From sequence record OQ921332.1: a DNA stretch of 64,000 nucleotides. One strand, given 5' to 3'. The stretch comes from Escherichia phage vB_EcoP_PAS59. Numbering within the stretch: position 1 is the first letter of the stretch; every line of letters starts with the position of its first letter. This document shows positions 6,376-30,453 of the stretch, piece after piece. A model generated the notes under the pieces. The model saw nothing but the letters and a program-made list of their open reading frames with translations, had not been told where the DNA came from and searched no databases. The position numbers and the translations under genes were made by a program.

Positions 6376-6405
6376 GCCCCTTCTGTACCAGTGGTCAACT
6401 ACTAT

Positions 6406-6454
6406 GACGCTCTTCTTGAGCGTCTTTTGTCTGCCGCCTCTGTGCGGCTTTTTG
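6406..6454 (+). terminator. two tandem rho-independent terminators
   Basis: GACGCTC/GAGCGTC stem + T-run, then GCCGC/GCGGC stem + T-run. Confidence 0.55.
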
Positions 6455-6612
6455 CGTAGCTAGTGATGCCTAAAGGGAACTCCCTTTGTGAATCATTGGC
6501 ATGGTTCAATCCCTATTGGATGGTCATTTGACCGGGCCTTTAACGAGGCCGCTTTTTTAAGAGTCTTTGCGAGGATTTTTAAATGAGTGAGGTCATGTTC
6601 ACTTTTCAGGTC

Positions 6613-6639
6613 GCCCCGTCTTCGGATGGGGCTTTTTTA
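6613..6639 (+). terminator. rho-independent terminator
   Basis: GCCCCGTC-ttcg-GATGGGGC followed by TTTTTT. Confidence 0.55.
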
Positions 6640-6690
6640 TGCCCGTAAAACAGGGGGTAGTAAGTTCTGATAACGACAGCACAGCTACTT

Positions 6691-7744: not shown

Positions 7745-7974
7745 AGATAAACTTCGAAATCATCCCAAAGGTTAAAGAAAAGCAGCTAATCTTCAGTGAT
7801 CTCTCTAACGGGGATATTTTTAAATTTAAGAATGTTGATGCTGATACTTATCTTTGGATGAAAATTGACAAACGGTCTGCCATGAAGTTAAGTGACACTT
7901 CTGACATCACTGATGTATTTATCCATTCTGAAGTCTCTAAGTACAAATACAAAATTATCATTGAGGGTAAGTGA
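7741..7974 (+). CDS. small protein, GDxF paralog family
   Basis: ORF track; SNGDIFKF motif shared with 7974, 8735, 11249, 12306, 13948. Confidence 0.5.
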   Translation: MKINFEIIPKVKEKQLIFSDLSNGDIFKFKNVDADTYLWMKIDKRSAMKLSDTSDITDVFIHSEVSKYKYKIIIEGK

Positions 7975-8204
7975 TGAAAATTAATCTCTTCTCTGTAGTT
8001 GTTACTAAAAAGCTCAGTGAGTTACGTCCGGGCGATGTATTCCGTTTACCGACTAACTCTGAAAATGTCTACCTAAAGACAGACACTAGACTTAACGATA
8101 TGCATCGTGTGGTTGGTCTTAGTCAGGGGACACTGTTCCAATTACAGGAAGACCATGAAGTTATCCCTGTACCTGATGTTCAAGTAACTCATATCAATGG
8201 TTAA
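7974..8204 (+). CDS. small protein, GDxF paralog family
   Basis: ORF track 7971..8204; PGDVFR ... IPVP shared with 13948..14199. Confidence 0.5.
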   Translation: MKINLFSVVVTKKLSELRPGDVFRLPTNSENVYLKTDTRLNDMHRVVGLSQGTLFQLQEDHEVIPVPDVQVTHING

Positions 8205-8206
8205 GT

Positions 8207-8340
8207 AACATCGACTTATAGCCCTTGTGTTTATCAGAGGGCTATGTGAGGGTGTTCCTCAATTAACTATAATCTCAACGCCATATGGCTCACCGCTAGG
8301 GCGAGACTTGTCTCAAACATCCGGTGATAGACTAAAACCT
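8207..8340 (+). repeat. conserved intergenic element, copy 1 (perfect 8-bp hairpin 8218-8245 plus ~90 nt of conserved sequence)
   Basis: near-identical to 14201-14340, including ATAGCCCT-loop-AGGGCTATGTGAG and CTCAAACATCCG. Confidence 0.55.
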
Positions 8341-8510
8341 GTTAATTTTCGAACAGCTTTCCGATATGTAGGGGTATGTATCGGTTTGGGATAGAGAACA
8401 ATCTAGGGGTAGAGAGTTCTCGACAGTTAGTACAAGCGGAAGCCTTAACGTGTAGGGCTTCCCTTTATATTAACTGGCAAACCTGCCTCCACCAACAAAG
8501 AGAGAACGAT

Positions 8511-8651
8511 ATGAAGAAGACAACCAAACGTATGAACCGTCCTGAACGTATGGATGCAGTAGCAAATGGTGCTCTGAAGATTGAGTCTGCCATGCTTCGT
8601 CTGACAACTAACATCCGTAAGCGTCAAGGTGATTGGTTCTACGGTGGATAA
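8511..8651 (+). CDS. hypothetical small basic protein
   Basis: internal ATG of ORF track 8376..8651 behind AGAGAGAA. Confidence 0.3.
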   Translation: MKKTTKRMNRPERMDAVANGALKIESAMLRLTTNIRKRQGDWFYGG

Positions 8652-8734
8652 TTAATAATGGGCTGCCCTTCGGGGTGGCCTTTGTTGTTTTAATTAAGGG
8701 ACAACTCTTAATTAAACTAACAAGAGAGGTTGAT

Positions 8735-8986
8735 ATGTTCAATCGTTTATTTGACCGTAAAGGTCGCACTGACATACTGATACCCTCTATCGGTGTGCCA
8801 GCTAAGTTCGGTGAGATACGTGCTGGTGATTTCTTCATGGAATCAGGTCGTCTTCATCTGAAGATTAATCTTGAACACGCTGTAGAAATCCTCAGTGATG
8901 ATAAGCCAATCATTGGCACTTCGGTGTACAGTGCAAACCATACTGTATTTGTTGTCAACGTCCAGATTGAGATTAAAAAGCCATGA
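8735..8986 (+). CDS. small protein, GDxF paralog family
   Basis: ORF track 8633..8986, start moved to ATG 8735 behind AGAGAGG; AGDFF motif. Confidence 0.45.
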   Translation: MFNRLFDRKGRTDILIPSIGVPAKFGEIRAGDFFMESGRLHLKINLEHAVEILSDDKPIIGTSVYSANHTVFVVNVQIEIKKP

Positions 8987-9291
8987 CAATTTCATCTTCA
9001 ACTCGCTGCAATCCTAATGTAGATATCCGTGCTCAAATGTCTAAGATGCCCGGTGTTACTCATTTAGAGTTCACCTACAGTCACTCGCGGTATGAACCGG
9101 GCTTTACTGTGGTAATAAAATCTCCGTGGTTAACAATGACATTGTTCTCGGATGAAGTTGAGAAGGCGGTGAATGGTATTAAGTCAGGCGGACTTAAACT
9201 TTTATCCACTGAACTGGCTGATGAGTTCATGCCTCTTATCCGTAAAGGTGTGGCTAAAATGAACAAAATGATGGAGGCTGCAAAGCAATGA
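8983..9291 (+). CDS. hypothetical protein
   Basis: ORF track; ATGA overlap. Confidence 0.45.
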   Translation: MTISSSTRCNPNVDIRAQMSKMPGVTHLEFTYSHSRYEPGFTVVIKSPWLTMTLFSDEVEKAVNGIKSGGLKLLSTELADEFMPLIRKGVAKMNKMMEAAKQ

Positions 9292-9542
9292 CAAACTTCC
9301 GAGCAGCAGTTATTACGAAAGTAATAGCAGTTGGTGATGTAATGATGCAAGTTCCTCTGAACACTCGTTACATTGCCATTGACCGAATGGGTTATGTGTG
9401 GGCTTGGAAGTGGAAGCCTACTTACAATGAACTGTTCGACGAATACCAGTGCGCTGGGCCTTACATGCCAACGTTGGTTGGTGTGTATGAAGACGGTCCT
9501 TGTCGTACTCCTCAGTTAATTGAACTACCGGCGTGTGCTTAG
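9288..9542 (+). CDS. hypothetical protein
   Basis: ORF track. Confidence 0.45.
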   Translation: MTNFRAAVITKVIAVGDVMMQVPLNTRYIAIDRMGYVWAWKWKPTYNELFDEYQCAGPYMPTLVGVYEDGPCRTPQLIELPACA

Positions 9543-9543
9543 T

Positions 9544-9708
9544 ATGATTAAATGGTTCAAGCGTCTTGTGCATCTGCATGATTGGGTAATCCTTGAAAAA
9601 TATACGCTGAAGATTACTGACGATCACGGTGGGACAAAGCACAAAGGTCTTCGCTATATTATGCAGTGTAAAGTGTGTGGTCATGTTACCAAGCGTGACA
9701 TGATCTAA
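9544..9708 (+). CDS. small zinc-ribbon-like protein (tandem paralog 1 of 3)
   Basis: MIKWFKRL...CKVCGH; internal ATG of ORF track 9520..9708. Confidence 0.45.
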   Translation: MIKWFKRLVHLHDWVILEKYTLKITDDHGGTKHKGLRYIMQCKVCGHVTKRDMI

Positions 9709-9717
9709 GGGATCATT

Positions 9718-9882
9718 ATGATTAAATGGTTCAAGCGTCTCTTTCATTTCCATGAGTGGGAAGATCTTTCTACTTATGAATTGACGATCACAAATAAACT
9801 TACTGACAGAGAGCGACAAGGGTTGCGTATCTACTCTCGCTGTAAAGTGTGTGGTCTGCACAAGAAAACAGATTTGATCTAA
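9718..9882 (+). CDS. small zinc-ribbon-like protein (tandem paralog 2 of 3)
   Basis: 54-aa ORF below the track cutoff; MIKWFKRL...CKVCGL. Confidence 0.4.
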   Translation: MIKWFKRLFHFHEWEDLSTYELTITNKLTDRERQGLRIYSRCKVCGLHKKTDLI

Positions 9883-9890
9883 GGGGTGTT

Positions 9891-10100
9891 ATGTTCTTTC
9901 GTAAGAAAAAGCCCGAAGATTCTGGATGTAAACATGAATGGGTGGTCACTGAAAACTTACATATCACTCACGCTAAAGACACTCCAGTAGAGAGAAAAGA
10001 ATCTCGTGTATCTCGCATCTGTAAACACTGTTTGAAAATAGAACAGCATAAAGTTCCCGGTCATATCGGTCATGATGTGGCCTTGCGTATTTTCAGTTAA
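9891..10100 (+). CDS. small zinc-ribbon-like protein (tandem paralog 3 of 3)
   Basis: internal ATG of ORF track 9849..10100; H.W ... ICKHC. Confidence 0.4.
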   Translation: MFFRKKKPEDSGCKHEWVVTENLHITHAKDTPVERKESRVSRICKHCLKIEQHKVPGHIGHDVALRIFS

Positions 10101-10109
10101 ACAAATCCA

Positions 10110-10185
10110 GCACCCTTAGCTCAATGGACAGAGCAGCGACCTTCTAAGTCGTTGGTTACAGGTTCGAATCCTGTAGGGTGCACCA
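10110..10185 (+). tRNA. tRNA-Arg (anticodon TCT)
   Basis: hand-folded cloverleaf: acceptor GCACCCT/AGGGTGC, D-arm GCTC..GAGC, anticodon loop CTTCTAA, T-arm ACAGG-TTCGAATC-CTGT, encoded CCA. Confidence 0.85.
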
Positions 10186-10203
10186 ATCAACGTAGGAGGG
10201 TTT

Positions 10204-10344
10204 ATGACCCCTGAGTTTAATGAGTGGTTCGATGATATCTTTACTTCTCCTTTGTTCAGCGAAGAAGAAAGAGAAGAACTTAAAACCTACCTATGGATGG
10301 CTTGGCGAGATAGCCGCCGTAAGGCGCTTCAGGAGGGATCATGA
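10204..10344 (+). CDS. small protein (46 aa), paralog of 11879..12010
   Basis: EWF...EELKTY.W.AWRDSRRK shared; below the track cutoff. Confidence 0.4.
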   Translation: MTPEFNEWFDDIFTSPLFSEEEREELKTYLWMAWRDSRRKALQEGS

Positions 10345-10667
10345 GCTGGGGTGGTGTAATTACCTTAACCTGTATCTTTATCGCCTGTGTAGCTCTTACA
10401 GGCTGTGTACAGCATCGTCCTGATGGGTGGTGTGCATTATCTGTAGAAGGTGTCTGTGTTTCCCGTTGGCATAGTGGGGAGAAGGTTCCTAGCGGTGAAA
10501 TTGATATGCGTTATGCTGGCGCTTCTTGTTCTAATGGCGGTGCTGTTGACGAGAAAGCTTATGCAAAACGTGACATGGAAACACAAGGTGATTGGTCACG
10601 ATACGACTTCATCTCCCGTGGTGTACAGTGTAGTGGCTCTGTGACAACAACAGGTAAGGAGTGGTGA
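10341..10667 (+). CDS. Cys-rich secreted protein or lipoprotein
   Basis: ORF track; signal peptide with LTGC lipobox-like site. Confidence 0.4.
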   Translation: MSWGGVITLTCIFIACVALTGCVQHRPDGWCALSVEGVCVSRWHSGEKVPSGEIDMRYAGASCSNGGAVDEKAYAKRDMETQGDWSRYDFISRGVQCSGSVTTTGKEW

Positions 10668-10668
10668 T

Positions 10669-10923
10669 ATGTCTAGTCATTATTCTGATACGAAAGCTTT
10701 ACTGGAAACAGCGGCTCAGACTTCATGCCAACAGCAAGTAAAAATGTTGTTGGTTGATATTCGTAATCTGCGTTGGCTTATCAAAGAAGGTCATATCGGA
10801 AACGCTGCCTATTACAACGTTAAAGATATCCTTCGCCGCCAGCACTTTCTTATCCACGGAAACGTGGTCACTCGCAACTATCAGTGGAATGGTCAATGGT
10901 TACAGCAGCGTATGTCCTCCTGA
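10669..10923 (+). CDS. hypothetical protein
   Basis: ORF track. Confidence 0.4.
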   Translation: MSSHYSDTKALLETAAQTSCQQQVKMLLVDIRNLRWLIKEGHIGNAAYYNVKDILRRQHFLIHGNVVTRNYQWNGQWLQQRMSS

Positions 10924-11150
10924 TTTATGTTATTGGTTGGTGGTTAGCAGCCATCGTAGTTAAGTGGTGCTTCAAAACCAATACATTCTATAACTTCTTC
11001 CACAACCCGTGGAGTGGTAAGCCTGATGAATATTCTATCTGGATAGTAATATTCTTCTGGCCTATTTTGTTATTATTCCTCTTACTCATCCCTTTCATGC
11101 TCCTGTTAGGGTGGGTGTTGGACAAGATGACAATCTTTATTATACATTGA
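10896..11150 (+). CDS. small membrane protein (paralog of 11622..11870)
   Basis: two hydrophobic helices; shared F.WPI motif; internal ATG of ORF track 10884..11150. Confidence 0.4.
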   Translation: MVTAAYVLLIYVIGWWLAAIVVKWCFKTNTFYNFFHNPWSGKPDEYSIWIVIFFWPILLLFLLLIPFMLLLGWVLDKMTIFIIH

Positions 11151-11248
11151 AAGAAAGGATTAATAAAACCCACTTCATCATGTATGGTCGTACTAGAAGT
11201 TATATCAAGTATGACTTTTGGAACTCTTACTACGGTTAGGATGTTATT

Positions 11249-11470
11249 ATGAAACTGAATTCTAAACAGTGCCTTAAAACTGTTGAACTATCCTCCCTCT
11301 CTAATGGGGATGTTTTTGGGCACGATAAACATTTCTGGATTAAAACAGATTTCTTAAATGACGGGTACATCACCTGCGTCAATCTTTGGAATGGTTCGGT
11401 AGATGGTTATCGCCCTAGTGCACAAGTGGTTCCTCAGCCTGATGCAAAGGTTGTAGGTTTAGTCTACTAA
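11249..11470 (+). CDS. small protein, GDxF paralog family
   Basis: ORF track; SNGDVFGHDKHFWIKTD. Confidence 0.45.
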   Translation: MKLNSKQCLKTVELSSLSNGDVFGHDKHFWIKTDFLNDGYITCVNLWNGSVDGYRPSAQVVPQPDAKVVGLVY

Positions 11471-11479
11471 GGAATTCAT

Positions 11480-11653
11480 ATGGCTTGCTATGGTGGTGGT
11501 GAAGTGTGTGACGATGATGACATGGAATCCAACGGAGAGTGCCCTGACTGTGGGTGTGAGACGTGGAATGGTGTGTCAGTATATCCTGCCTGTAGTTATT
11601 CACCAGTGATTTGTAAAACATGTGGAGATCAACCTTGTGATCAGTCCTGTTAG
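11480..11653 (+). CDS. small Cys-rich protein (57 aa)
   Basis: ATG behind AAGGA; CPDCGC and CKTCGDQPCDQSC clusters; below the track cutoff. Confidence 0.4.
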   Translation: MACYGGGEVCDDDDMESNGECPDCGCETWNGVSVYPACSYSPVICKTCGDQPCDQSC

Positions 11654-11870
11654 TGTGTTAATAGTCTACCTGATAGGTATTGTGTTAACCTCAGCTCTGA
11701 TAAAATTCCTTGATGTAAAAGGTAGTGTCGAGTTCAGAGGATGGGGTAACGAACCAAACCTATCAAAGATAGCAATTATAGTTTTTCTATGGCCCATTGT
11801 TGCTGTGATGTTTATATCCCTTTGCTTGTGGGCAGGGCTGTGGGGTTTCATTCTTCCTAAAAAGGAGTAG
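11622..11870 (+). CDS. small membrane protein (paralog of 10896..11150); start uncertain
   Basis: ORF track; F.WPI motif. Confidence 0.4.
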   Translation: MEINLVISPVSVLIVYLIGIVLTSALIKFLDVKGSVEFRGWGNEPNLSKIAIIVFLWPIVAVMFISLCLWAGLWGFILPKKE

Positions 11871-11878
11871 GGGTATTT

Positions 11879-12010
11879 ATGACTAAAGAATTTTTAGAGT
11901 GGTTTGGAAATACCTTCAAAGAATATCTATTCTCTCCAGAAGACTTTGAAGAGCTGAAAACCTACACTTGGTTGGCTTGGAGAGATAGCCGACGAAAAAT
12001 GAATAAGTAA
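11879..12010 (+). CDS. small protein (43 aa), paralog of 10204..10344
   Basis: ATG behind AAAGGAG; EWF...EELKTYTWLAWRDSRRK. Confidence 0.4.
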   Translation: MTKEFLEWFGNTFKEYLFSPEDFEELKTYTWLAWRDSRRKMNK

Positions 12011-12305
12011 TATCGTGAAGGACTCTTACGAGAGTCCTTTGAGATAGGACTTCAGATCTTCTATCAAACTAACTTTCACGTAACTAGCCCATAAGGGCGT
12101 TACCCTTCAATAACCCAGCCCACTAAGGGGGCGGGAGTTTAGTGCTGGAAAAGCATAACGCTTATCCTACAAAGGCAACCGATTGTTAGATCTTACATGC
12201 AATATTAATTAATAGGATATGGGAGGATTCGTCCCCTCCCCCTATTTATGAAAGCATTCTCCCGAGAGTTCTCTCATAAATTGGTCCATAACTAAAGGTG
12301 GTAAA

Positions 12306-12560
12306 ATGAAAGTTAACAAACCAGCCAGTAAGAACGCAATACCACTCAGCGCTCTGCGTCTTGGGGATTGCTTCATGTACCCTAACAGTGAAGATGGTGA
12401 TTTGTATATCTTACTGTCTACAGAGTTCTCCACTCGTTTGTGCATTAAGGGTGCGGACGAGCACAGACTTGTAGCCTGTCTTAACACAGGCCGAGCGACA
12501 GCTCCTCGTAAAGATGTTGCTGTTATTCCTATTAAAGCTGAAGCAACTATTAAGGAGTAA
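12306..12560 (+). CDS. small protein, GDxF paralog family
   Basis: ORF track; LRLGDCFMYP. Confidence 0.45.
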   Translation: MKVNKPASKNAIPLSALRLGDCFMYPNSEDGDLYILLSTEFSTRLCIKGADEHRLVACLNTGRATAPRKDVAVIPIKAEATIKE

Positions 12561-12563
12561 GCA

Positions 12564-12827
12564 ATGGCTCTGACCATTAACAAAACTCGTATTGCGGATA
12601 TTCCTCTAATGGTGGCAGGTGTTTCTATCGGTTCTTTCTTTACTTTGAAAGAAGATAAAGAACAAACCATTTACATGAAAGTGAACAAAAGCTCTAATGG
12701 TTGTGAATACCACCGAGCTGTGTCTGTGCAGAGTGGATACGTTCGTAATATGGCATCCAATATGCCAGTTGGTGTTGTGTTTGAATCAGCAACTCTGGAT
12801 TTAGTGGAGAAGATCAGTGAAACATAA
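12564..12827 (+). CDS. small protein (divergent GDxF-family member?)
   Basis: ORF track. Confidence 0.4.
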   Translation: MALTINKTRIADIPLMVAGVSIGSFFTLKEDKEQTIYMKVNKSSNGCEYHRAVSVQSGYVRNMASNMPVGVVFESATLDLVEKISET

Positions 12828-13074
12828 AGACCATCCAAAGTATGTATCGCTATTGGATGCAGCCCTTCTCTGCACGTACTGGCTCCTTATTGTTATTGGG
12901 GTTGTGCTAATGATATGTGGTGTCGTACAGTTCTTTATGTATCTGCAAAGCGTGTTAGATACCACATTAGCTAACACTATAATCCTTGCAATTCTCGGTG
13001 TTATTGCTTTCTGTGTGATTGTCTTCTTCGTTTGGTTATCTATGAACGACGACTCTACACACACCTTCTATTGA
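12817..13074 (+). CDS. small membrane protein
   Basis: ORF track; two hydrophobic helices. Confidence 0.35.
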   Translation: MKHKDHPKYVSLLDAALLCTYWLLIVIGVVLMICGVVQFFMYLQSVLDTTLANTIILAILGVIAFCVIVFFVWLSMNDDSTHTFY

Positions 13075-13273
13075 CAGGAGAAAATCAGTGAGAAAACGTG
13101 CCTACTCTGAAGAAGAAATGGTTAACTTGAAAGGCTTCGGTCAACGACAGCCTGACGGTTCAGTTATCTGGTACATTAACGGACAGAAAAAGGCAAGTAA
13201 ATAAGCCCTCTTCTCTCCTCCTTTTAACTACTATGACGCCTCTCTTTTCGGCGCTGTTTTGGAGCTTCAAAAA

Positions 13274-13687
13274 ATGGCTGGGAAATTCCCCAACGTAAGC
13301 AAGAAATTGGCTTACCTCACGTATAAAGAAAACATTGATCTTCTGGTCAAGCTTTATCCGGCTTCATTCAACAAGCAATTCCCTCTTCCTTTGGAGCTTA
13401 ACATCCATAAGGAAATAGCCCGTAAGACCGGTTGGTCAGCGGAGAAAACAAGCATGGTGCTCAACATCTGGACTACTCGTATGGAGTATGTGATGATGGC
13501 CTGTAGCACTGGTAAACGCTTCAAGCTGCACTCTGTAGCTATGAAGATTCGTAGCCCTATCGACCCTGAGCCGATGGCTGGGTTCAGTAGCCGTTTGAAA
13601 TCTTTCCGTGATCGTGGTCGTGTAGTGAAATTCAAGCATGACTTCTCTTACAAGTTTGGATACGAAGCGTTCCAATTTGTTGTTTAA
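13274..13687 (+). CDS. ProQ/FinO-domain RNA-binding protein (putative)
   Basis: internal ATG of ORF track 13259..13687; pattern YPASFNKQFPLPLELNIHKEIARKTGWSAEKTSMVLNIWTTRMEYV aligns with the E. coli ProQ N-terminal domain as recalled. Confidence 0.45.
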   Translation: MAGKFPNVSKKLAYLTYKENIDLLVKLYPASFNKQFPLPLELNIHKEIARKTGWSAEKTSMVLNIWTTRMEYVMMACSTGKRFKLHSVAMKIRSPIDPEPMAGFSSRLKSFRDRGRVVKFKHDFSYKFGYEAFQFVV

Positions 13688-13714
13688 TCTCTCTTTAAAA
13701 TAAGGTAATAAAAC

Positions 13715-13948
13715 ATGTCTAAAGTTAGCGCAATTGATGCCATCCGTCAGCCGTTCCAGTTCCAGTCTAAATCAACTCAGACCCACAGCGAACCTAAACA
13801 GATTCGTCTGGGCGGTACAGAGAAGACTGTATTTGATATTGCGAAAAACAAAAGCGTAACCATCGTCGAAGGCGGCGAACTGGTTAATGTTTCCCACCGT
13901 ATTCGCACTGGCAAGACTGCCAAAGATCGTGCTAAGAAAGGTTTGTAA
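13715..13948 (+). CDS. hypothetical small protein
   Basis: ORF track; translation-initiation region AAGGTAATAAAnATGTCTAAAGT repeated at 34410. Confidence 0.45.
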   Translation: MSKVSAIDAIRQPFQFQSKSTQTHSEPKQIRLGGTEKTVFDIAKNKSVTIVEGGELVNVSHRIRTGKTAKDRAKKGL

Positions 13949-14199
13949 TGCAAATTTCCAATAAAACACCTCCTGAGCCTACTGTTCAAGTAAAAGATAT
14001 GACACCGGGAGATGTGTTTCGTTCGGTTGAATATCCGGGGGAATTCTTTATCCGAACCCCTTCTGCCTCTGTTGATGGTGTCACTAAGCCGGTAACAGCA
14101 GTTCAGTTGAGCACAGGTCATCTCTTCCGTTTAGAGCTTGACATGGCAGCTATTCCTGTTCCGACAGCAATCCTCCGCTTCGACGGAGACACAGAGTAA
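13948..14199 (+). CDS. small protein, GDxF paralog family
   Basis: ORF track; PGDVFR ... IPVP. Confidence 0.5.
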   Translation: MQISNKTPPEPTVQVKDMTPGDVFRSVEYPGEFFIRTPSASVDGVTKPVTAVQLSTGHLFRLELDMAAIPVPTAILRFDGDTE

Positions 14200-14200
14200 C

Positions 14201-14340
14201 ATCTATAGCCCTCGTGAGTATCAGAGGGCTATGTGAGCTATTCTGGCTCAACTAACCTAATCTTAATTTAATCTTACCCGTATGGGGCCGATGCTAGGGA
14301 GAGGAACAATCCTCAAACATCCGTCGGATAGAATATTTTA
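14201..14340 (+). repeat. conserved intergenic element, copy 2 (hairpin 14206-14231)
   Basis: near-identical to 8207-8340. Confidence 0.55.
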
Positions 14341-14604
14341 AGAGCAGGTTATCCACAGATATTGGGTGATATCTATTTAATTGGCCTTAAAGCTTGGCTC
14401 TCTTAGGAGAGTCCTTTTTTAAGTTCAAAGAAGAGGTTGTATGGATAATAAGTTGAAAGCTAAATTCTTATTGGCAGCAATCTTTATTTGCTTAGCCACT
14501 GTAGGGTTTGTCAGGATGTACTCTTTTGCATCTTGTGAATTAAGCAAGAATGATAGAGGGTCTTACAACTGGCTAACCAATCAATGTGACAAACAGGAGA
14601 AGTT

Positions 14605-14967
14605 ATGAACCTACGCCCCATTAAAGGCCATGTGAACCTGTCTACGCTTCATAAAGTAGCAAATGATTTAGGTGGTATGGATGAGAATGATTTGGAGCAG
14701 AATTTGCTCTGGATTGCTAATGGCATCAAGGCGGCAAAGGCCAAAATGGCTCGTGCACAAGGTAAACTAAAAGCGAATAAATATCTTATTCGTCGTCGTA
14801 ATGTCTTGCCTCAGGATGTGGTGAGTTTAGCTTTATCGGGATATAAAGCGGCAGAGTTAGAACTTCAGGAAGCTGAATTTGAAAAGATGCGCTTCCAAGA
14901 GAACTATCGAAACTTCCGTAGTATTGACTACATTCGCAAATCTCTGGGCCTTCTGGTATCAGAGTAA
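14605..14967 (+). CDS. hypothetical protein
   Basis: ORF track. Confidence 0.5.
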   Translation: MNLRPIKGHVNLSTLHKVANDLGGMDENDLEQNLLWIANGIKAAKAKMARAQGKLKANKYLIRRRNVLPQDVVSLALSGYKAAELELQEAEFEKMRFQENYRNFRSIDYIRKSLGLLVSE

Positions 14968-21808: not shown

Positions 21809-22042
21809 ATGGAAGTTCGTAAACTGATGTTGGATAACGTGGTAACTACCCGTCGTATTCCGATGACAAGCACAGGATGTGATAACCTCCGAGCAATTCA
21901 GAAGTGGATGCAAGAAGGTATTGGGAAGCTGGTTGACTCTCCAGTAGAAATCCCTTTTCCAACCGTTATCAATAACGTGTTGGCTGACTATGTTAAAATG
22001 AAGGGGATTAAAGTTGAGCCTCATGTCAAGCAAGGGAGCTAA
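21809..22042 (+). CDS. hypothetical small protein
   Basis: ORF track. Confidence 0.35.
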   Translation: MEVRKLMLDNVVTTRRIPMTSTGCDNLRAIQKWMQEGIGKLVDSPVEIPFPTVINNVLADYVKMKGIKVEPHVKQGS

Positions 22043-22244
22043 GCCTCACCTGACAATGCTGGAGTATCAACAACTCCGACTTCAACAACTGGTAACGGAG
22101 CAGCGAAAGCTGTATCCGTTTGCTTTTAACTTAATCGACTCTCCAAGTGATGCCCAAGAAGACGAAATGTTCGCCGAGTATTGGGCAATCGAAGCTAAAA
22201 TTCAATCCTGTCGTAACGAAATTCTTAAACTAAAAGGTATCTAA
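22014..22244 (+). CDS. hypothetical small protein
   Basis: ORF track. Confidence 0.3.
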   Translation: MSLMSSKGAKPHLTMLEYQQLRLQQLVTEQRKLYPFAFNLIDSPSDAQEDEMFAEYWAIEAKIQSCRNEILKLKGI

Positions 22245-22246
22245 AA

Positions 22247-23494
22247 ATGACTACTCGTATCCGTGTTCTTCCGTATGGCCCGTCTGATTCTGTTAACGCT
22301 CTGGTATCTGCTATCAGTGATACTATCCGTGATGAACGTATCAACGCTAACATAATGGGTCTTCTTTCAGAGAACAGTCGCTGGCGTTCTCGTGAGGATG
22401 ATGTGGTTGTGAACTACGGGAACCGTCGCTATCCTGAATCCTTCTTTGGTTCTGCAACTGTCCTTAACCGTACCGCAGCCTTACATATGGCAGCGAACAA
22501 ACGTCGTGCTTTCAGCGTGATGGACCAAGCAGGTGTTAAAACTGTTGAGTATACAGATGTTCAAGAGATTGCTCAGGAGTGGTCAAACTCTGGCAACATT
22601 GTGTATGAACGTCATGAACTGACTGGTCACTCTGGTTCGGGTATCGTTGTTGTTGAGCCTCGTGATTCAATTGGTCAAGCTGAACTGTACACCAAAGGTA
22701 TTCAAGGTCCACGTCGTGAATGGCGTGTCCATGTGTTCAAAGGTGTTATCACCTATGTTCAGAAGAAGATTCGTCGTAACGGCTATCGTGAAGACCCTAA
22801 CTATCGTGAAGATGTTCGTAACCATCACACTGGTTGGGTTTACTCAAGTTCCTTCACAGACGCTCCAAATGATGCATCTCTGATCAACGCAGTGAAGGCC
22901 GTTGAATCGATGGGTCTGGATTTTGGTGCAGTTGATATCATTACCAAAGGCCGAGAAGCATGGGTACTGGAAGTTAACACAGCACCGGGCCTGACTGGTA
23001 CAACTCTGGATATCTACCGTCACAACATCCTTGAGTTTGTTAAAGCTCAAAATCCTCTCTATACTCCTCAGTATAAAGTGGGTTACCAGACTCCTGTTGA
23101 AGCTCCAATCGAAGACGGAGATGGAGAGTTGGTAGATGACAGCGAAAGCGCTAATGATGAAAACTTTGCACTGGAAGGTCAGGTAGCACAGCCGGTTGAG
23201 TTGGTAGATGTAGTTCCTGAAGAGATGCAACTGGAAGGTCAGATGAATACTCAAACTATTCGTAATGCACCTACTGGTTACACTTTATCTCGTGGTTATT
23301 GGATTGCAGATATCCGTCATGTCCATAACAACCTGCAACCGAATGCAATGTCTTCCAATGTCATTTTGTTCTGTGATGGTCGTAACTTCTACCGTAGTGG
23401 CTGGAACGTTCCGGTCAATCCAGTCCAGATTCATAACCCTCGCAAGTTAGAATCTGTCAATGTTGAAGGTAGCGAAGTAGCAGTAACTCTGTAA
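22247..23494 (+). CDS. ATP-grasp ligase (RimK-like) with acidic C-terminal extension
   Basis: ORF track; ERHELTGHSGSGIVVVEP, EWRVHVFKG, DFGAVDII...WVLEVNTAPG. Confidence 0.55.
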   Translation: MTTRIRVLPYGPSDSVNALVSAISDTIRDERINANIMGLLSENSRWRSREDDVVVNYGNRRYPESFFGSATVLNRTAALHMAANKRRAFSVMDQAGVKTVEYTDVQEIAQEWSNSGNIVYERHELTGHSGSGIVVVEPRDSIGQAELYTKGIQGPRREWRVHVFKGVITYVQKKIRRNGYREDPNYREDVRNHHTGWVYSSSFTDAPNDASLINAVKAVESMGLDFGAVDIITKGREAWVLEVNTAPGLTGTTLDIYRHNILEFVKAQNPLYTPQYKVGYQTPVEAPIEDGDGELVDDSESANDENFALEGQVAQPVELVDVVPEEMQLEGQMNTQTIRNAPTGYTLSRGYWIADIRHVHNNLQPNAMSSNVILFCDGRNFYRSGWNVPVNPVQIHNPRKLESVNVEGSEVAVTL

Positions 23495-23520
23495 TTAAAT
23501 TAAACAAAAAGGAATTTGTA

Positions 23521-23763
23521 ATGTTGTCTATCGAAGATTTGATCAGCCGTGGAATGACCGAAGAAAAAGAGCCTCTGATTGTAGGCTCTCGTAAAGCTAT
23601 CAACCAACTCTGTGAAGAGTTCGGTATCACAAATAAGAGAATGATTGGTAATCAGTTCTCTGCAATCATCACCTTCCTCAAACGAGGTGATAAATATTCA
23701 ATGGAAAGTGCTGAGCGTATCATCGCAATTGCACAAGCAGATAAGGGAGTAACAAGTCTGTGA
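23521..23763 (+). CDS. hypothetical small protein
   Basis: ORF track. Confidence 0.4.
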   Translation: MLSIEDLISRGMTEEKEPLIVGSRKAINQLCEEFGITNKRMIGNQFSAIITFLKRGDKYSMESAERIIAIAQADKGVTSL

Positions 23764-23945
23764 ATAAATATACAATCATGTTTCGTACAGTAACATCAGA
23801 AGGGAATATTCAATCTCTGGATATTCAAGCAGACCGCTTTGAATCACTTGGAACAAATGTCAATTTCTTCCGAGGCGCAGAGCTAGTAGGTACGTTCCAA
23901 TCTGATGTATTAACTGGTGTGATCAAACACTTCGAAGTAGAATAA
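23760..23945 (+). CDS. hypothetical small protein
   Basis: ORF track; followed by hairpin AGCCTC...GAGGCT. Confidence 0.4.
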   Translation: MNKYTIMFRTVTSEGNIQSLDIQADRFESLGTNVNFFRGAELVGTFQSDVLTGVIKHFEVE

Positions 23946-24011
23946 TTTGCTTTAGCCTCTTCGAAAGAGGAGGCTAGTTCGAATTTAACTGAAACACTAA
24001 AAGGTAATATA

Positions 24012-24443
24012 ATGTCTGATAAAGTACTAGTTGCAACTTACGGAAGCTTGAGAAAAGGTCAACACAACCACGCTATCAATGCTCGTGCAGGTGGTGTGTC
24101 TATTGGTGAAGGGTGGACAGTAAACAACTGTAACCTGTATCAGTATTGCACAGCATACTTCCCAAGTGTATCTTTGGAGCATGACAGCAATGGTAAGCCT
24201 GTTCGTGTAGAAGTCTTTGAAACAACCCAAGCTGGTCTGGAAGGTCCGTATGACGGTCTGGAAGGTCATCGTGGTAATGATAACCCATACACCTTTTATA
24301 AGCGTACACTGATTCCAGTATTATTGGACAGCGGTGAAACTGTGGAAGCGTGGATTTATCACATCGACGAAGAACAAGATGTTCTGGTTGAATCGGGTGA
24401 CTGGACAGCATATCTGGCAGGTGAGAAGGATGACAGTAACTGA
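24012..24443 (+). CDS. gamma-glutamyl cyclotransferase-like (GGCT/AIG2 fold) protein
   Basis: ORF track; N-terminal YGSLRKG motif. Confidence 0.5.
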   Translation: MSDKVLVATYGSLRKGQHNHAINARAGGVSIGEGWTVNNCNLYQYCTAYFPSVSLEHDSNGKPVRVEVFETTQAGLEGPYDGLEGHRGNDNPYTFYKRTLIPVLLDSGETVEAWIYHIDEEQDVLVESGDWTAYLAGEKDDSN

Positions 24444-24636
24444 CAGGCAGAAGTTAAGAAAGCTTGAATCTGACTACTTAAAGATGCGGTGGAAGATTAA
24501 TCGCTATGAAAAGTTTGTCAGTATGCTCACACCTGATAAGCACTCTGAAGAGTTTATTCACAGAACAAAGCAAACCTTGCAGGGTTTTCGAAACTTGCAA
24601 GATGACGTGTGGGAAGAAATACGATCGTTTTATTAA
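24430..24636 (+). CDS. hypothetical small protein
   Basis: internal ATG of ORF track 24334..24636. Confidence 0.35.
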   Translation: MTVTDRQKLRKLESDYLKMRWKINRYEKFVSMLTPDKHSEEFIHRTKQTLQGFRNLQDDVWEEIRSFY

Positions 24637-24671
24637 GAAGATTGCTCAAGGAATTCCAAGGAGGATAGAGC

Positions 24672-26462
24672 ATGTCAAAGATCATTTTGGGAGACACAGG
24701 CTGTAAAGAGTGCATCTCTCATGGTCGTGATAAGACCCATAATCACATGATTCTCTTCCGAAATGAAGAGTCCGGTGAGGAGTGGGGTTCATGTAACAGA
24801 TGTGGTGCGTATGAAATCTTCGAGAAAGGAACGACGCCCACTCCTAATGAAAAGAAAGAGCTGTCCCCTGAAGAACTTCGAGAAGTCTTAGACGATTGCT
24901 TAGAGCTTCCTCAGGGAGAGTTGACTCGTCGCTTAATCCCTAAAGCTGTGTCTGAACGCTATGGATGCCGTATTGGTTTAAGTCAAACAGACGGTCAAAC
25001 TCCTGACAGCTACTTCTTCCCTCGTGAACGTGATGGGAATATTGTTGGATATGAAGTAAAACTTCTAGACAGCAAGAAATTCTATTATGTAGGTAATGTG
25101 AAAGAAGCCGACTTATTTGGTATGGCTCAAGCACAACGTGGTGACGTATACAACAAGAAACTCTTCATCTTTGAAGATCCTCTCTCTTGTATGTCTGGGT
25201 TCCACGTACTTACCGCGTTTACAAACGCAACTAACATCAAACCTGCTTGCGTCTCTCTTCCGTTCGGTGCAGGTTCAATCTCTTCTGTCTTATCAAGAAA
25301 CCGTGATTTTATTAATGGTTTCGAGGAGATTGTACTCTGCATGGACAATGATGATGCAGGTGAGATTGCTTTAACTAAGGGTCGTTCTCTGTACCCGCAT
25401 GTTAAGTTTTCAAGGATTCCAAAAGGTACGTTCACTTATAACGGACAAGAAAAGGAAATCAAAGATGCAAACGACATGTTACTGGCAGGGAGAGGTCAAG
25501 AGCTTTTCAATAATCTTAAGTATTCAGCTAAGCGGGAATCTCCTGCTGGAGCTGTTACAGTTTTTGATTGCCTCGAAGATGCTCTGAAGAAAGCGGAATG
25601 GGGTATTCCTTATCCGTGGAAAACTCTTAACGACATGACCTTTGGTATTCGTTGGGGAGAGATGGTTGCAATCGGCGGTGGTGTTGGTTCAGGTAAAACC
25701 TTAATCGCACACGAACTGGTAGCATGGCTTTGCCTTGAGCATGGTTTTAATGGTGGTGGCTTCTTCTTGGAAGAGAAGGTAGGCATGTCTGTTAAGAACA
25801 TTGCTGGTAAGTCTGCATCTGTTCCATTTCACCGACCAGATGTTGAGTATGAAGAAAGCCAGCTACGAGATGAAGCACTTCGATACGCTGATAAGTTTTT
25901 CTTATACGACAACTTTGGACAGAATGAGTGGGAAGACATTAAGCAGTGTATTCGCTTTTGGGTAGTTGAGAATCAATGTAAGTTTATCATCCTTGATAAC
26001 ATCACTGCATTGGTATCTCACTTAACTCCATCCGAAGTGAATACAGAAATCAGTAAGATTGCTTCAGAGCTTGCTGGTATGTGTAAGGAATTAGACTTCA
26101 CTGCTTTTGTGTTATCTCACTTGAATGCTCCGGCGGGCGGTGCCCCTCACGAAGAAGGTGGTCAGGTTAAAGAAGTACAGTTTACTGGCTCACGTTCATT
26201 AATGCGCTGGTGTCAATGTATTATCGGTTTCGAACGTAATAAACAAGCGGATGGGTTAGGTAAAAACTTGTCAATCATACGTCTGCTCAAAGAGCGTAAC
26301 TATGGACAGACGGGGGTTTGCTATACCAAATATATTAACGAAACAGGTCGTCTTGTAGAACGAGAAGATCATGAAGTTGATGAAGATAATCCGTTTACAG
26401 TCACCAACGGAGAAGATGCAGCTTCCTTACTCTCACAAGAAGGGGAGGCGCGTCCGTGGTAA
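24672..26462 (+). CDS. T7 gp4-like primase-helicase
   Basis: ORF track; RBS AGGAGG; zinc ribbon CKEC...CNRC; Walker [10 protein letters not shown]. Confidence 0.85.
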
Positions 26463-27004
26463 AGAAACTGTATGCGTTTGATATTGAAGGTGATAACCTC
26501 TATGACGGTATTCAGAATGTCTGGTGTATATGGATATTTGATGTACTGTCTGGAGAACGGTGGGGGTATCGCCCTCACCAAATTGAAGAAGCACTACACA
26601 AACTGAAAGAAGCTGATGTAGTAATAGGTCACAATATTATTGATTTTGACCTTCCTGCTTTGTTTAAATTCTATTCTCATGTGATACCTTTTCGTTTTAA
26701 TGTCTTTGATACTCTGTGCCTGAGTCGATACCTCAAGCCTGACCGTATTGGTGACAGTCCAGAATACCCCAAAGGCGACCCTAGACATGGCCCTCGCGGT
26801 CATGGCCTCAAGCAATGGGGTGAATTTCTGGGAGAGCTGAAGGGTGATTATGGTGAACAGGAAGAAGCATGGGACGCATTCACTGAAGACATGTTCACAT
26901 ATTGTGAGCAAGACGTTAACTTGACAGTTAAGGTTTACATGTGTCTTTGCCAAATGGCAGGATTTGATTATAAGAATCCCCCATCTCTCAACTGGAAAAT
27001 GTAG
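26456..27004 (+). CDS. family-A DNA polymerase, N-terminal 3'-5' exonuclease domain (separate ORF)
   Basis: ORF track; Exo I motif FDIEG; [38 protein letters not shown] align with T7 gp5 residues ~1-190 as recalled; ends at a stop. Confidence 0.8.
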
Positions 27005-27006
27005 AA

Positions 27007-28479
27007 ATGATTAAGATTCCATTATCTGAATTGAACCTTCAAGAAGGAGAAGCCCTCAGTGTAGGGCTTGACCTGATTCGTAATTTGATCAGAGATAACG
27101 TAGTCCCTGATGGCATCTATCCTGTTATTGCAGGTGGTGCTATCCGTGATACGTTCTTTCAAAATAGAACTCCGAATGATGTTGATATCTTCCTAGTTCA
27201 AGGAGGATTACGTTGGAACGCTCGTCAGGAAAATAGCCCTGCTAACGTAGGTAATGCTGCACTTTTCCTTGACAACTTCTTATCTTGGACAGAAAGTAAA
27301 GGGCTTCAGGTTACATCTCGACTAATTCAGCCTGTTAACGGGACAACCTATGCTGAAGCGCTTTTCACTTTCCAAGAGATTCTGGAAATCGAGATTGATC
27401 AAGTTAAAATCCAGATGATGATTAATCTACCTTTGGATATGGATACTTTAAGCCGTCGCTTCCCTATGATCTGTCAAGGGTTTATGACTCTTGGTAATCT
27501 GTATGTGTCAAACGAAGGTTTGTTTGCAATGTCATACACTCGTGACATTCCTGTGGTGTCCAGTCGTGAAATGAAGTATGTTCACAAGAAGTGGCCTGAA
27601 GCAACTGTTGCAGTTTATAGCAGTTCTACCGAATATATGCACCTTGCAATGGGAGCTTTCGGTGAGCCAGAAGTTCACCTGATTAGTGATTTAGTTGGAC
27701 CTATGGCTGGTGTAAATTTATATCAGAATCAGCGTCGTCATTATACCCTGAAGATGATGGAAACTACATTAAACATTCCTCAGGAAAGGGGTCGTAGTTA
27801 TCTGGACGAGGAAGTTAACCTACAGACAGAATGGTCTAGTGGATTAACCACTATAGGTGCTGAAGCAATTACACGACCTTGGACTCCGGGAACTAACAGA
27901 CGAGATCTTCAAGCTTTTAATGAAGAAACTTCTCGAACTGTTCGAGGAGGTGTTGTAGGGTATAACGTACAACCTCATGAAAGACCTCGTGATACTTTCA
28001 CTGGTAGTTTTGGTAGTGCACACTCTTCTGGAATGGATACTCGTACATGGCATGTCCAAGGAGGAACTGCTCGTCCTATTCCCTCTCCGTCAATGGATGA
28101 TTTGCAGCGTTCTCGTCGTTCATGGGAAACAGTAAGCTCTGTTGTTCAGGGTCTACGTGCTAGTGATATTGAACGTGTAGAAGTTGGTGATTTGCCAACC
28201 TCTACAGAAGATCGAGTATCAGCTATAGCGGCTCGTGAAGCTGCTCATATTGGTTTTGCATCATTAGCTAATGACGCTAACGAAGCTCCTCGACCTGTTG
28301 GTCGTCGTAATGGTCTAGCTCACTCTGACACTGCACTTGGTGCAGAACTACGAGCAGCAGCTCGTGAGCTATCTGGTGAGCTTCACAACAACCTGGCAGG
28401 TGTTACACTATCTCGTGAAACAGCTCGTAATATGATTAATAATTTGGCATCATCTGTACAAGGAAACAGAAACTCATGA
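27007..28479 (+). CDS. Pol-beta superfamily nucleotidyltransferase (CCA-adding/poly(A) polymerase-like head) with low-complexity C-terminal half
   Basis: ORF track; GGAIRDTFFQNRTPNDVDIF matches the GGxVRD...DxD signature. Confidence 0.5.
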   Translation: MIKIPLSELNLQEGEALSVGLDLIRNLIRDNVVPDGIYPVIAGGAIRDTFFQNRTPNDVDIFLVQGGLRWNARQENSPANVGNAALFLDNFLSWTESKGLQVTSRLIQPVNGTTYAEALFTFQEILEIEIDQVKIQMMINLPLDMDTLSRRFPMICQGFMTLGNLYVSNEGLFAMSYTRDIPVVSSREMKYVHKKWPEATVAVYSSSTEYMHLAMGAFGEPEVHLISDLVGPMAGVNLYQNQRRHYTLKMMETTLNIPQERGRSYLDEEVNLQTEWSSGLTTIGAEAITRPWTPGTNRRDLQAFNEETSRTVRGGVVGYNVQPHERPRDTFTGSFGSAHSSGMDTRTWHVQGGTARPIPSPSMDDLQRSRRSWETVSSVVQGLRASDIERVEVGDLPTSTEDRVSAIAAREAAHIGFASLANDANEAPRPVGRRNGLAHSDTALGAELRAAARELSGELHNNLAGVTLSRETARNMINNLASSVQGNRNS

Positions 28480-29009
28480 GTCTTTTAGGTTCTCAAGAAT
28501 TACACAGCGTTATTGATAATGGCTTTTTAGATGCGGAGCATAAATATGTTAACGCTGCTAGTGTGGATATCCGTATTGGTGATACTATCCTTGTTGAAGA
28601 GCAGGCTGATGGTATTGTTGACATTGATGCTAAAGAAAACCTCAAGTGGAAAGAAGTAAAAATCCCTGAAGATGGTATCGTTATCACTCCGGGACAGTTC
28701 TTCTTAGCTCACTCAATGGAAGAGTTTAACCTTCCAGACAATATTTCAAGTCTGTTTGTACTCCGCTCCTCAATGGCTCGTTGTGGTTTAAACCATCTCC
28801 ATGCTGGTTGGGCTGATGCAGGGTTTAATAACAGTAAGCTGACCTTTGAGTTCCATAACGTTACTCACAATCACAGCTTACGAGTTCGTGCTGGGATGCG
28901 TGTCGGTCAAATGGTTATGTTTGAACACTCTCACGCTGGTGATGATTCCTATGCAGTGAAGGGTCGTTATAACAACTCCGATGGGGTTGTTGCTTCTAAA
29001 GGTGTATAA
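28476..29009 (+). CDS. dcd: dCTP deaminase / dUTPase-superfamily protein
   Basis: ORF track; AASVDIRIGD and RSSMARCGL resemble Dcd motifs. Confidence 0.6.
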   Translation: MSLLGSQELHSVIDNGFLDAEHKYVNAASVDIRIGDTILVEEQADGIVDIDAKENLKWKEVKIPEDGIVITPGQFFLAHSMEEFNLPDNISSLFVLRSSMARCGLNHLHAGWADAGFNNSKLTFEFHNVTHNHSLRVRAGMRVGQMVMFEHSHAGDDSYAVKGRYNNSDGVVASKGV

Positions 29010-29027
29010 CTGATGGAGTTTGGAACA

Positions 29028-29225
29028 ATGAAAAGACGTTGGGTTGTTCGTGTTCACTGGAGCAGTGGTACAGAATCAATGGGTATCAGAAACACTCGTC
29101 AAGAAGCTCGCGCTCATAAGAAGTTCCTATTAAGCTGCGAAAGTACTATTGACAAGATCACTATCCACAAAGCTCAGGACTTTAAATCAGGTCGTTTCTA
29201 TATCAGCGGAAAGGTACATTACTAA
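29028..29225 (+). CDS. small protein (tandem paralog 1, ends KVHY)
   Basis: internal ATG of ORF track 29013..29225; W.VRV.W...TRQEAR shared with next gene. Confidence 0.4.
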   Translation: MKRRWVVRVHWSSGTESMGIRNTRQEARAHKKFLLSCESTIDKITIHKAQDFKSGRFYISGKVHY

Positions 29226-29431
29226 TGGCTAAATTATGGGCAGTTCGTGTTAAATGGGCTAACAAAGATCTCGGTGGTGACTGTCTTAAATTATTCGACA
29301 CACGACAAGAAGCTCGTCTTGCTAAGAAAGCTACAAAAGCTTTAGGACTCGCTGAAAAAGTGGATATTCATCGCTGGTTTCAAAATGATAATAACAGTGC
29401 TGGGTCCTTGACTAGCAAGGTCCACTACTAG
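29225..29431 (+). CDS. small protein (tandem paralog 2, ends KVHY)
   Basis: ORF track. Confidence 0.4.
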   Translation: MAKLWAVRVKWANKDLGGDCLKLFDTRQEARLAKKATKALGLAEKVDIHRWFQNDNNSAGSLTSKVHY

Positions 29432-29501
29432 TTGGTAGTAGATATGATAACTCTCAAATGTATATACAGTATAAGAATATTGTATGAAACAGGAGAGAGT
29501 T

Positions 29502-29831: not shown

Positions 29832-29919
29832 TAATGTCTTCGACTTACCAGAACTAACAAGAGTGGGTTCTAGTAATCCATTCTCTACTACTGATTCTTC
29901 TATCTCTCGTCTTGAGGGA

Positions 29920-30390: not shown

Positions 30391-30453
30391 TCAAACCTCC
30401 GCCCTGTCTCGTTTGTTCAAGAGGTGGGGCGAACTTTTTATAAGGATGTGAAT

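Follow-up and report, generated by a model that had tools for sequence, protein, structure and literature searches.

Two paralogous copies of a covarying RNA element in the early region of Escherichia phage vB_EcoP_PAS59, one of them complementary to the host nrdD leader

Escherichia phage vB_EcoP_PAS59 carries two paralogous copies of a previously undescribed covarying RNA family, copy A starting at position 8205 and copy B at 14196 of a 64,000-nucleotide stretch of sequence record OQ921332.1 (hereafter the window; Table 1). Each copy runs from a stop codon through a structured 5' domain, common to the two, into a 3' domain of its own and on to a terminator or terminator-like hairpin, the layout seen in small RNAs that originate in 3' untranslated regions (3'UTRs). 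The 3' part of copy B contains a stretch antisense to the leader of host nrdD, the gene for the anaerobic class III ribonucleotide reductase. With slightly less than even confidence, and reading from sequence, we suggest that these modules are 3'UTR-type phage small RNAs built on a common scaffold, and that copy B may be an antisense regulator of host nrdD.

A shared sense-strand RNA structure

The element was first noticed as a repeated intergenic unit of ~130 bp that includes an 8-bp hairpin, each copy directly after a gene of the GDxF family. A covariance model built from homologues places the two copies where this original prediction had put them (8207-8333, 116.6 bits; 14194-14334, 143.5 bits) and finds no others in the whole window. 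The 64 kb contain exactly two instances of the hairpin ATAGCCCT-N12-AGGGCTAT with GTGAG after it (8218-8245 and 14205-14232), against 0 expected from 100 shuffles; the conserved blocks GCTAGGG(C/A)GAG ... CTCAAACATCCG ... GATAGA appear in both copies, which align over ~130 nt; and a repeat search grouped them as family D13, with 34 nt at 91% identity. The view that the hairpin is not an intrinsic terminator also holds, as it lacks a T-run and is followed by GUGAG, and a terminator scan reports only 8438-8462 and 14396-14413. Some particulars required correction: in copy B the hairpin begins 5 nt after the stop codon and not ~14 nt, the sequence given for this copy as CGCTAGGG is actually TGCTAGGG, and the structured, conserved unit is far longer than ~130 bp, reaching ~8510 in copy A and the terminator at 14396-14420 in copy B. 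The hairpin itself is real, but is merely one helix (P1) of a multi-helix RNA.

Both regions fold far better than shuffled sequences (z -4.6 and -3.8), and into the same architecture: a hairpin domain, a G-free linker, a 3-bp hairpin, and then a stem, an invariant 7x7 internal loop and a second stem. Among homologues gathered from phage records, IMG/VR and metagenomes, RNAalifold predicted four helices from 22 distinct sequences: P1; P3, the 3-bp hairpin, with a RUAU loop; P4, a 6-bp stem; and P5, consisting of GAG/CUC plus 0-2 more pairs. The internal loop between P4 and P5 is formed by 5'-CUAGGG(A/C) and (A/G)AACAUC-3'. In a MAFFT alignment of the 22 sequences 99.6% of cells are paired, with double changes at 8 pairs; in a model-based alignment of 33 sequences 99.1% of cells are paired, and both sides have changed in 13 of the 23 pairs. 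The covariation score of the 33 sequences was reached by none of 500 shuffles, and shifting the partners by 1-3 columns lowered pairing to 27-50%. Because the larger alignment is model-based it leans towards the model, and the independent 22-sequence MAFFT result carries more weight. In the Citrovirus-like copy L059 the P1, P2 and P4 sequences are wholly different and yet all paired, and the internal loop is unaltered.

These compensatory changes belong to one strand. Pairs of the U.G type are frequent, and would become A.C mismatches on the opposite strand; the structure is thus that of the sense strand, and hence of RNA. The internal loop is also more than an unpaired bubble. Its 5' base beside P5 and the base opposite are A/G in 19 sequences, C/A in 9 and A/A in 4, with C/G in 0, a covariation that is not Watson-Crick (Fisher 2.5e-5, kinship ignored) and that reflects a switch in several lineages, indicating a structured non-canonical motif. 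The linker, as read off the sequences, is single-stranded, free of G and 19-32 nt long in every lineage. We conclude that the shared domain is a sense-strand RNA structure.

Beyond this domain the two copies part. In copy A the helices P6, P7 and P8 contain covarying pairs (RNAalifold, 17 distinct A-type sequences), and P6 and P7 both bear UAGGGGUA loops; the scanned hairpin at 8438-8462 is followed only by the weak tail CUUUAUAUU, and in most genera this hairpin has no U-tract. In copy B the P2 segment GUUAU can pair alternatively with the GUAAC leader, within which the stop codon TAA lies, and a long-range helix, PL, joins UAACCU..UCUUAA (14253-14266) to UUAAGA..AGGUUA (14338-14351), closing a junction of P3 and P4/P5. 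Covariation is seen in PL when kuraviruses are compared with the 7-11 group. After PL come an unpaired UCCACAG, a small GGG-looped hairpin (14357-14374), and a terminator whose 7-bp G+C-rich stem and U6 tail lie 20 nt upstream of the next ATG; this terminator is annotated in SU7, 4E8 and 7-11, and its stem covaries across relatives. G-runs flanked by UA recur in the hairpin loops of both copies (GUAGGGGUA, CUAGGGGUAG and UUGGGU, at 8371-8374, 8406-8409 and 14364-14366), in the CUAGGG of the internal loop, and in Klebsiella phage Klyazma and L059; they could constitute a protein-recognition or tertiary-contact motif. Potential for G-quadruplex formation was noted as well.

A search for the element in relatives, as the original prediction had recommended, recovered both copies, with identities of 84-100%, from about 100 records of Escherichia and Shigella phages in three kuravirus-like genera, in which most flanking genes fail to align. 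Salmonella phages of the 7-11 group, which belong to another family (Grimontviridae), have one B-type copy in syntenic position, terminator included, and the covariance model finds no further copy in the 7-11 right arm. Comparing 15 kb of the window with 24 kb of 7-11, nucleotide similarity is limited to two enzyme genes and element B. Citrovirus (Zobellviridae) phages and a contig binned as a Flavobacterium metagenome-assembled genome have divergent versions of the shared domain (L059 3018-3143, L071 2639-2788 and L070 2337-2453); those of Klyazma and Citrobacter phage CVT22, in the equivalent spacer, diverge further than that of L059. Scans with the core pattern covered viral, metagenome and genome collections; matches outside the kuravirus-like and 7-11-like phages and one Citrovirus-like contig were rejected, being chance-like, in coding DNA, and devoid of the flanking helices. 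In phage EcoN5 (L023 7481-7612 and 8999-9130) two identical B copies lie ~1.5 kb apart, and their flanking genes are duplicated too (gp97/96-B-gp95/94/93 and gp92/91-B-gp90/89), indicating a recent tandem duplication that took in the element.

At gathering thresholds Rfam 15 identifies only tRNA-Arg in the window, and for the two regions at E values up to 10 it returns only sub-threshold matches (miRNA models, TarB and STnc100) caused by generic hairpins and the terminator. The literature searched on phiEco32, Kuravirus and Gordonclarkvirinae, which did not extend to the key phiEco32 papers PMC2587145 and PMC3275717, contained no mention of the element and yielded neither transcriptome nor genetic data on these phages.

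Complementarity of copy B to the host nrdD leader

The most informative feature of the element, absent from its first description, is homology to the host. Of 5426 complete E. coli genomes, 5423 contain one site each that matches positions 14333-14366 of copy B at 32 of 34 bases. The BLAST E value of 4e-4 was computed on 28 Gb of highly redundant genomes; with one genome as the database it would drop by several orders of magnitude. The match falls in the treC-nrdD spacer, right upstream of the nrdD start codon, and the phage + strand is antisense to nrdD. The predicted duplex covers about -43 to -10 of the leader and adjoins its GGAG Shine-Dalgarno (SD) sequence; it comprises 33 bp and a single mismatch (of the two positions that differ from E. 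coli, one is compatible with a G.U pair), and has a predicted energy of -58.2 kcal/mol against -22.9 ± 4.1 for shuffled sequences (z -8.6). These energies derive from local segments, as full-length RNAduplex allows very large loops and was uninformative. Comparing an oligonucleotide (PMC12176259) with the leader sequence puts the nrdDG promoter's NrdR boxes ~150-200 nt before the ATG. With these boxes well upstream, the target probably lies within the transcribed nrdD leader.

The complementarity is conserved. In the E. coli-phage B sequences aligned, the antisense stretch is by eye identical and other loops vary, and Salmonella-phage and metagenomic B copies retain it. The nrdD leaders of Salmonella and Citrobacter rodentium, located through their TreC neighbours, keep the target core CUGUGGAUAACCUGUUCUUA within differing flanks, and all B variants, including those of Salmonella phages, pair with these two leaders and that of E. 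coli in runs of 11-28 bp at -31 to -53 kcal/mol. E. coli phages agree best with the E. coli leader, since their match takes in the AAAUUGGG flank peculiar to it. Of 14 positions, 11 are alike in the 5' strand of PL (UAACCUAAUCUUAA) and the target (UAACCUGUUCUUAA), so that PL is an intramolecular mimic of the RNA:target duplex.

A small RNA was among several functions offered by the original prediction, and it fits best: each copy spans a stop codon to a terminator or terminator-like hairpin, and copy B has its 34-nt antisense match. The general proposal of an RNA-level element is upheld by compensatory changes confined to the sense strand and by G.U pairs, whereas an RNase III site is a weak candidate with stems of 3-7 bp. 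Copy B both starts at a stop codon (14197-14199) and ends at an intrinsic terminator with a U-tail (14396-14420, U6), and it has a conserved stretch complementary to an mRNA near its ribosome-binding site (RBS), of which the E. coli searches detected no counterpart for copy A.

We suggest the following sequence of events. The terminator would release the 3' end of RNA B, and processing in or before the element would make its 5' end. RNA B would then pair with nrdD mRNA through an exposed AUCCACAG toehold, displacing its own helix PL, and the resulting duplex would block ribosome entry, form an RNase III substrate, or both, lowering synthesis of NrdD and NrdG. Less likely, RNA B might instead remodel the nrdD leader and activate synthesis. 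The shared 5' domain may serve as a scaffold that confers stability, directs processing or binds a protein partner, and on it copy A would carry a different effector domain.

Several small RNAs offer a precedent. Like terminator-ended enterobacterial small RNAs of 3'UTR origin, such as CpxQ, SroC and DapZ, and antisense small RNAs of phages or prophages, such as DicF, the phage RNA lies between a stop codon and a U-tailed intrinsic terminator, contains a conserved stretch complementary to an mRNA leader beside the RBS, and has an A/U-rich single strand preceding the terminator. In contrast to them, its pairing of 33 bp is far above typical seeds, it has a large covarying 5' domain in common with a paralogue whose 3' part is different, and the phages that encode it are virulent and come from at least two families.

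A number of observations weigh against such an antisense role. Copy A shows no complement in E. coli genomes even at E values up to 10, and the Citrovirus copies are without the nrdD stretch, so that antisense action leaves the repeated shared domain unexplained. Half of the antisense stretch is paired inside copy B, in PL, so access needs a toehold and strand displacement; the Salmonella-phage versions have weak host specificity; and the reading depends on a discrete RNA of ~225 nt and on its 5' end, both of which we infer. A phage motive for repressing the host reductase is not obvious, as none of the 10 large phage open reading frames (ORFs) scanned encodes a ribonucleotide reductase of its own. 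Expression of ~20 kb of downstream genes requires read-through of the copy B terminator, suggesting that the element has a role in cis too. Finally, a perfect DnaA box lies within the match and the nrdD leader carries two such boxes, which allows an explanation at the level of DNA. The boxes of the E. coli leader (L075 1519-1527 and 1595-1603) have the same orientation as the one in copy B (TTATCCACA, 14349-14357), and both are kept in Salmonella and Citrobacter rodentium; DnaA control of nrdDG was not mentioned in the literature searched.

Alternative roles

The main rival is a cis-acting transcription-elongation element like lambda nut or HK022 put, in which the nascent structured RNA, possibly with CUCAUUAAC as a boxA-like sequence beside hairpins, would modify RNA polymerase, either by itself or via a phage or Nus protein that binds the invariant internal loop, and let it pass the terminator and the long untranslated spacer into the following gene block. 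We regard this as unlikely, though it is compatible with a trans role of B. The setting is suggestive: each copy follows a stop codon and precedes a terminator or terminator-like hairpin, the strong B terminator stands 20 nt before the next gene with no promoter-like site for kilobases after it, so that the downstream early genes need read-through, and the element comes as two copies in a genome, like nutL/nutR and putL/putR. As in those systems, the copies are paralogous, follow an early-gene stop codon, lie upstream of a terminator and contain adjacent stem-loops with compensatory changes between copies; here only 0-1 nt separates the P3 and P4/P5 hairpins. This put-like position in an early transcript fits copy B and the SU7-type copy A, but the copy A hairpin is without a U-tract in most genera, and the pairing of element with terminator is therefore not universal.

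The sequence itself is less accommodating. The phage element is two to four times larger than nut or put and lacks a boxB loop of the GNRA type; the P1 stem GCCCU/AGGGC is reminiscent of boxB, but the loops it closes vary (4-12 nt) and are not boxB-like. Read off the sequences, the linker CUCAUUAAC resembles boxA CUCUUUAAC, but the best match to boxA (CGCUCUUA / GCUCUUUAACAA) is CCUCAUUAACUU, at 8/12 positions, which is chance level over 300 nt. We also searched HK022 22000-30500, up to the start of replication gene O, which we take to hold putL and putR although the record has no such annotation; the covariance model (R1) with filters off gave nothing better than an E value of 1.6 there, and no Rfam family was detected either. 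The nrdD complementarity is left unaccounted for. A similarity of the P7 loop GGGGUAG to the ops element of RfaH was dropped, as only 7/10 positions agree with the consensus and key positions are missing.

An intercistronic processing or stability element is a less probable alternative. P1 would be a barrier to 3' exonucleases, the linker an RNase E site, and the stem, loop and stem an RNase III-type site, together giving neighbouring gene blocks unequal half-lives. A stable hairpin without a U-run straight after the stop codon and the G-free linker, retained in all lineages, would suit such a role, and the two stems with a bubble conserved between paralogous copies resemble the early RNase III sites of T7, which are likewise repeated intercistronic arrangements of stem, internal loop and stem with a conserved loop and compensatory stem changes. 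Unlike in T7, the phage helices are much shorter, and there are only two copies, with extra helices and a junction. RNase III needs a coaxial helix of ~20 bp; P4 has 6 bp and P5 3-5 bp around the 7x7 loop. Moreover, two sites only are present in an early region of ~25 kb, the invariant loop bases, three-way junction and non-Watson-Crick covariation exceed the needs of a cleavage site, and the host match is not explained.

It is more improbable still that the element is a leader or attenuator, a riboswitch-like or protein-binding aptamer controlling the terminator or RBS of the gp112-like and gp90-like genes. The order of an aptamer-like junction, terminator, RBS and ATG would agree with this, as would downstream genes that are constant beside an upstream gene that varies (LAMP and Bas93). 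Riboswitch leaders similarly combine a multi-helix junction, in which unpaired bases are invariant, with a downstream intrinsic terminator and start codon, but here there is no recognisable aptamer class (Rfam, E values up to 10) and no conserved, covarying antiterminator, the PL-terminator link being just 4-6 nt of non-covarying AAGAG/CUCUU complementarity found by inspection, and the controlled genes are unrelated between lineages. In copy A the P2 3' arm, UCCUC (8256-8260), could base-pair with AGAGAGA (8500-8505), the SD-like sequence of the gp112-like gene, but every pair is invariant, and covariation is consequently silent either way.

Least probable of all is a DNA-level site, a host-derived fragment whose DnaA box serves as an origin or transcriptional roadblock with the rest incidental: the perfect box is conserved in 7-11-like phages and the nrdD leader keeps its two in Salmonella and Citrobacter, but copy B has this single box in place of a cluster (the only one-mismatch site nearby, 14440-14448, is not kept in kuraviruses) and lacks AT-rich repeats, identity to the host runs 12-16 bp past the box on each side and includes E. 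coli-specific flanks that DnaA does not need, copy A and the Citrovirus copies have no box, and the shared repeat has sense-strand RNA covariation with G.U pairs.

Genomic setting and implications

The window is the genome of a Gordonclarkvirinae podophage (phiEco32/SU7-like), with SU7, EK010 and E20-1 as its nearest records. Early genes and a tRNA-Arg gene are on the + strand, and the early region (~25 kb), which consists of many small ORFs with function-less annotation, contains both copies in the sense strand of the early operon (Table 1). As first described, the genes upstream of the copies are paralogous (34% identity, E 4e-8), with a PGDVFR motif in both products. An obligatory tie to them was rejected, as copy A follows another gene in LAMP and Bas93. 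The constant partners of the element are the downstream genes, and a shared function of these was rejected in turn, since they are unrelated between lineages. The gene downstream of copy B opens the block leading to an amidoligase / COOH-NH2 ligase cluster, and every phage group with this RNA also has a downstream amidoligase / COOH-NH2 ligase / glutamine amidotransferase cluster in the same operon.

Table 1. Coordinates of the two copies and their neighbouring genes in the window
Feature	Position	Strand	Details
Copy A upstream gene	7971-8204	+	77 aa, GDxF/PGDVFR family; from ORF list; PHROG matches are unknown-function families only
Copy A shared 5' domain	8205-8331	+	GUAAC leader 8205-8209; P0 8208-8212/8251-8255; P1 8217-8226/8237-8246; alternative P2 hairpin 8248-8260; G-free linker 8261-8279; P3 8280-8289; P4 8290-8295/8322-8327; P5 8303-8314; UAGA 8328-8331
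Copy A internal loop	8296-8302/8315-8321	+	CUAGGGC/AAACAUC
Copy A own 3' domain	8332-8510	+	P6 8361-8384 (GGGG loop); P7 8394-8421 (CUAGGGGUAG loop); P8 8434-8466, terminator-like, weak tail CUUUAUAUU 8463-8471; P9 8476-8487
Copy A SD-like site	8497-8505	+	AAAGAGAGA; directly before ATG 8511
Copy A downstream gene	8511-8651	+	46 aa, phiEco32 gp112-like; invariably 3' of copy A in relatives
Copy B upstream gene	13948-14199	+	83 aa, GDxF family; stop codon within GUAAC of the element
Copy B shared 5' domain	14196-14332	+	GUAAC 14196-14200; P1 14204-14213/14224-14233; P2 14235-14249; G-free linker 14250-14276, carrying PL 5' strand (14253-14258, 14261-14266); P3 14277-14286; P4 14288-14293/14322-14327; P5 14301-14314; AUAGA 14328-14332
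Copy B internal loop	14294-14300/14315-14321	+	CUAGGGA/AAACAUC
nrdD-complementary stretch	14333-14366	+	AUAUUUUAAGAGCAGGUUAUCCACAGAUAUUGGG; overlaps PL 3' strand (14338-14343, 14346-14351), perfect DnaA-box 9-mer 14349-14357 and 5' half of hairpin 14357-14374
Copy B intrinsic terminator	14396-14420	+	GGCUCUC-UUAG-GAGAGUC then CUUUUUU; terminator scan
Copy B downstream gene	14441-14608	+	55 aa, gp90-like, hydrophobic N-terminus

Many records, for example Bas86, Bas87, Bas88 and UKE3, annotate at least one and up to three 'hypothetical protein' ORFs over copy A. A protein-coding reading of copy A (ORF 8227-8394) was rejected on the grounds of 4-nt indels among relatives and compensatory stem changes, and for the same reasons the annotated ORFs are probably false gene calls. 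Promoters were sought as well: the phage-sigma motif TAATGTATA occurs on the + strand of the window at 626, 33995 and 41046 only, and in neither copy, and a sigma-70 promoter inside the element was rejected, as TATAAT at 8268-8273 has no -35 partner, is not kept in kuraviruses and is unreported by the scan.

Other features of the early operon were recorded in passing. A third long non-coding spacer (12002-12305) opens with a terminator-like hairpin, GGACTCTTACGAGAGTCC then TTTGAG, that resembles the copy B terminator, and contains several G+C-rich hairpins, among them GTAACTAGCCCATAAGGGCGTTAC and GGGAGGATTCGTCCCCTCCC; model R1 gave no detection there. Near the start of the early region, 3' of a gp120-like gene, four terminator-like hairpins (6406, 6433, 6535 and 6613) are clustered at 6400-6640 in one 315-nt spacer. 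Pairs of direct repeats with 72-78% identity lie within small ORFs (9543-9617/9717-9791, 10263-10322/11938-11997 and 34527-34591/34789-34853), indicating tandem or dispersed paralogous early genes.

Phage-encoded riboregulators are known as a kind; this family, its scaffold fold and its proposed target are new. A broader possibility, which we consider doubtful, is that the element represents a new, modular class of phage riboregulators, in which a scaffold of three-way junction and invariant non-canonical internal loop would be bound by a host or phage protein or by RNA polymerase and would carry exchangeable effectors. The effector of copy B would be an nrdD antisense masked by the PL mimic, with which virulent gut coliphages and Salmonella phages might shut off or sense the anaerobic reductase during early takeover, and the same RNA might control whether transcription reads through into the early gene block that follows.

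The shared domain, in which covariation is strong, represents a new RNA fold. It is also the best-conserved nucleotide segment of the early region across phage families, and for this reason it probably contacts conserved host machinery. To our knowledge, small RNAs of virulent phages with defined host mRNA targets are rare. Kuraviruses are used in phage-therapy cocktails, and an element that alters host nucleotide metabolism or early timing would be of practical relevance there. If copy B does act on nrdD, it would tie takeover by the phage to the anoxic gut where these coliphages multiply.

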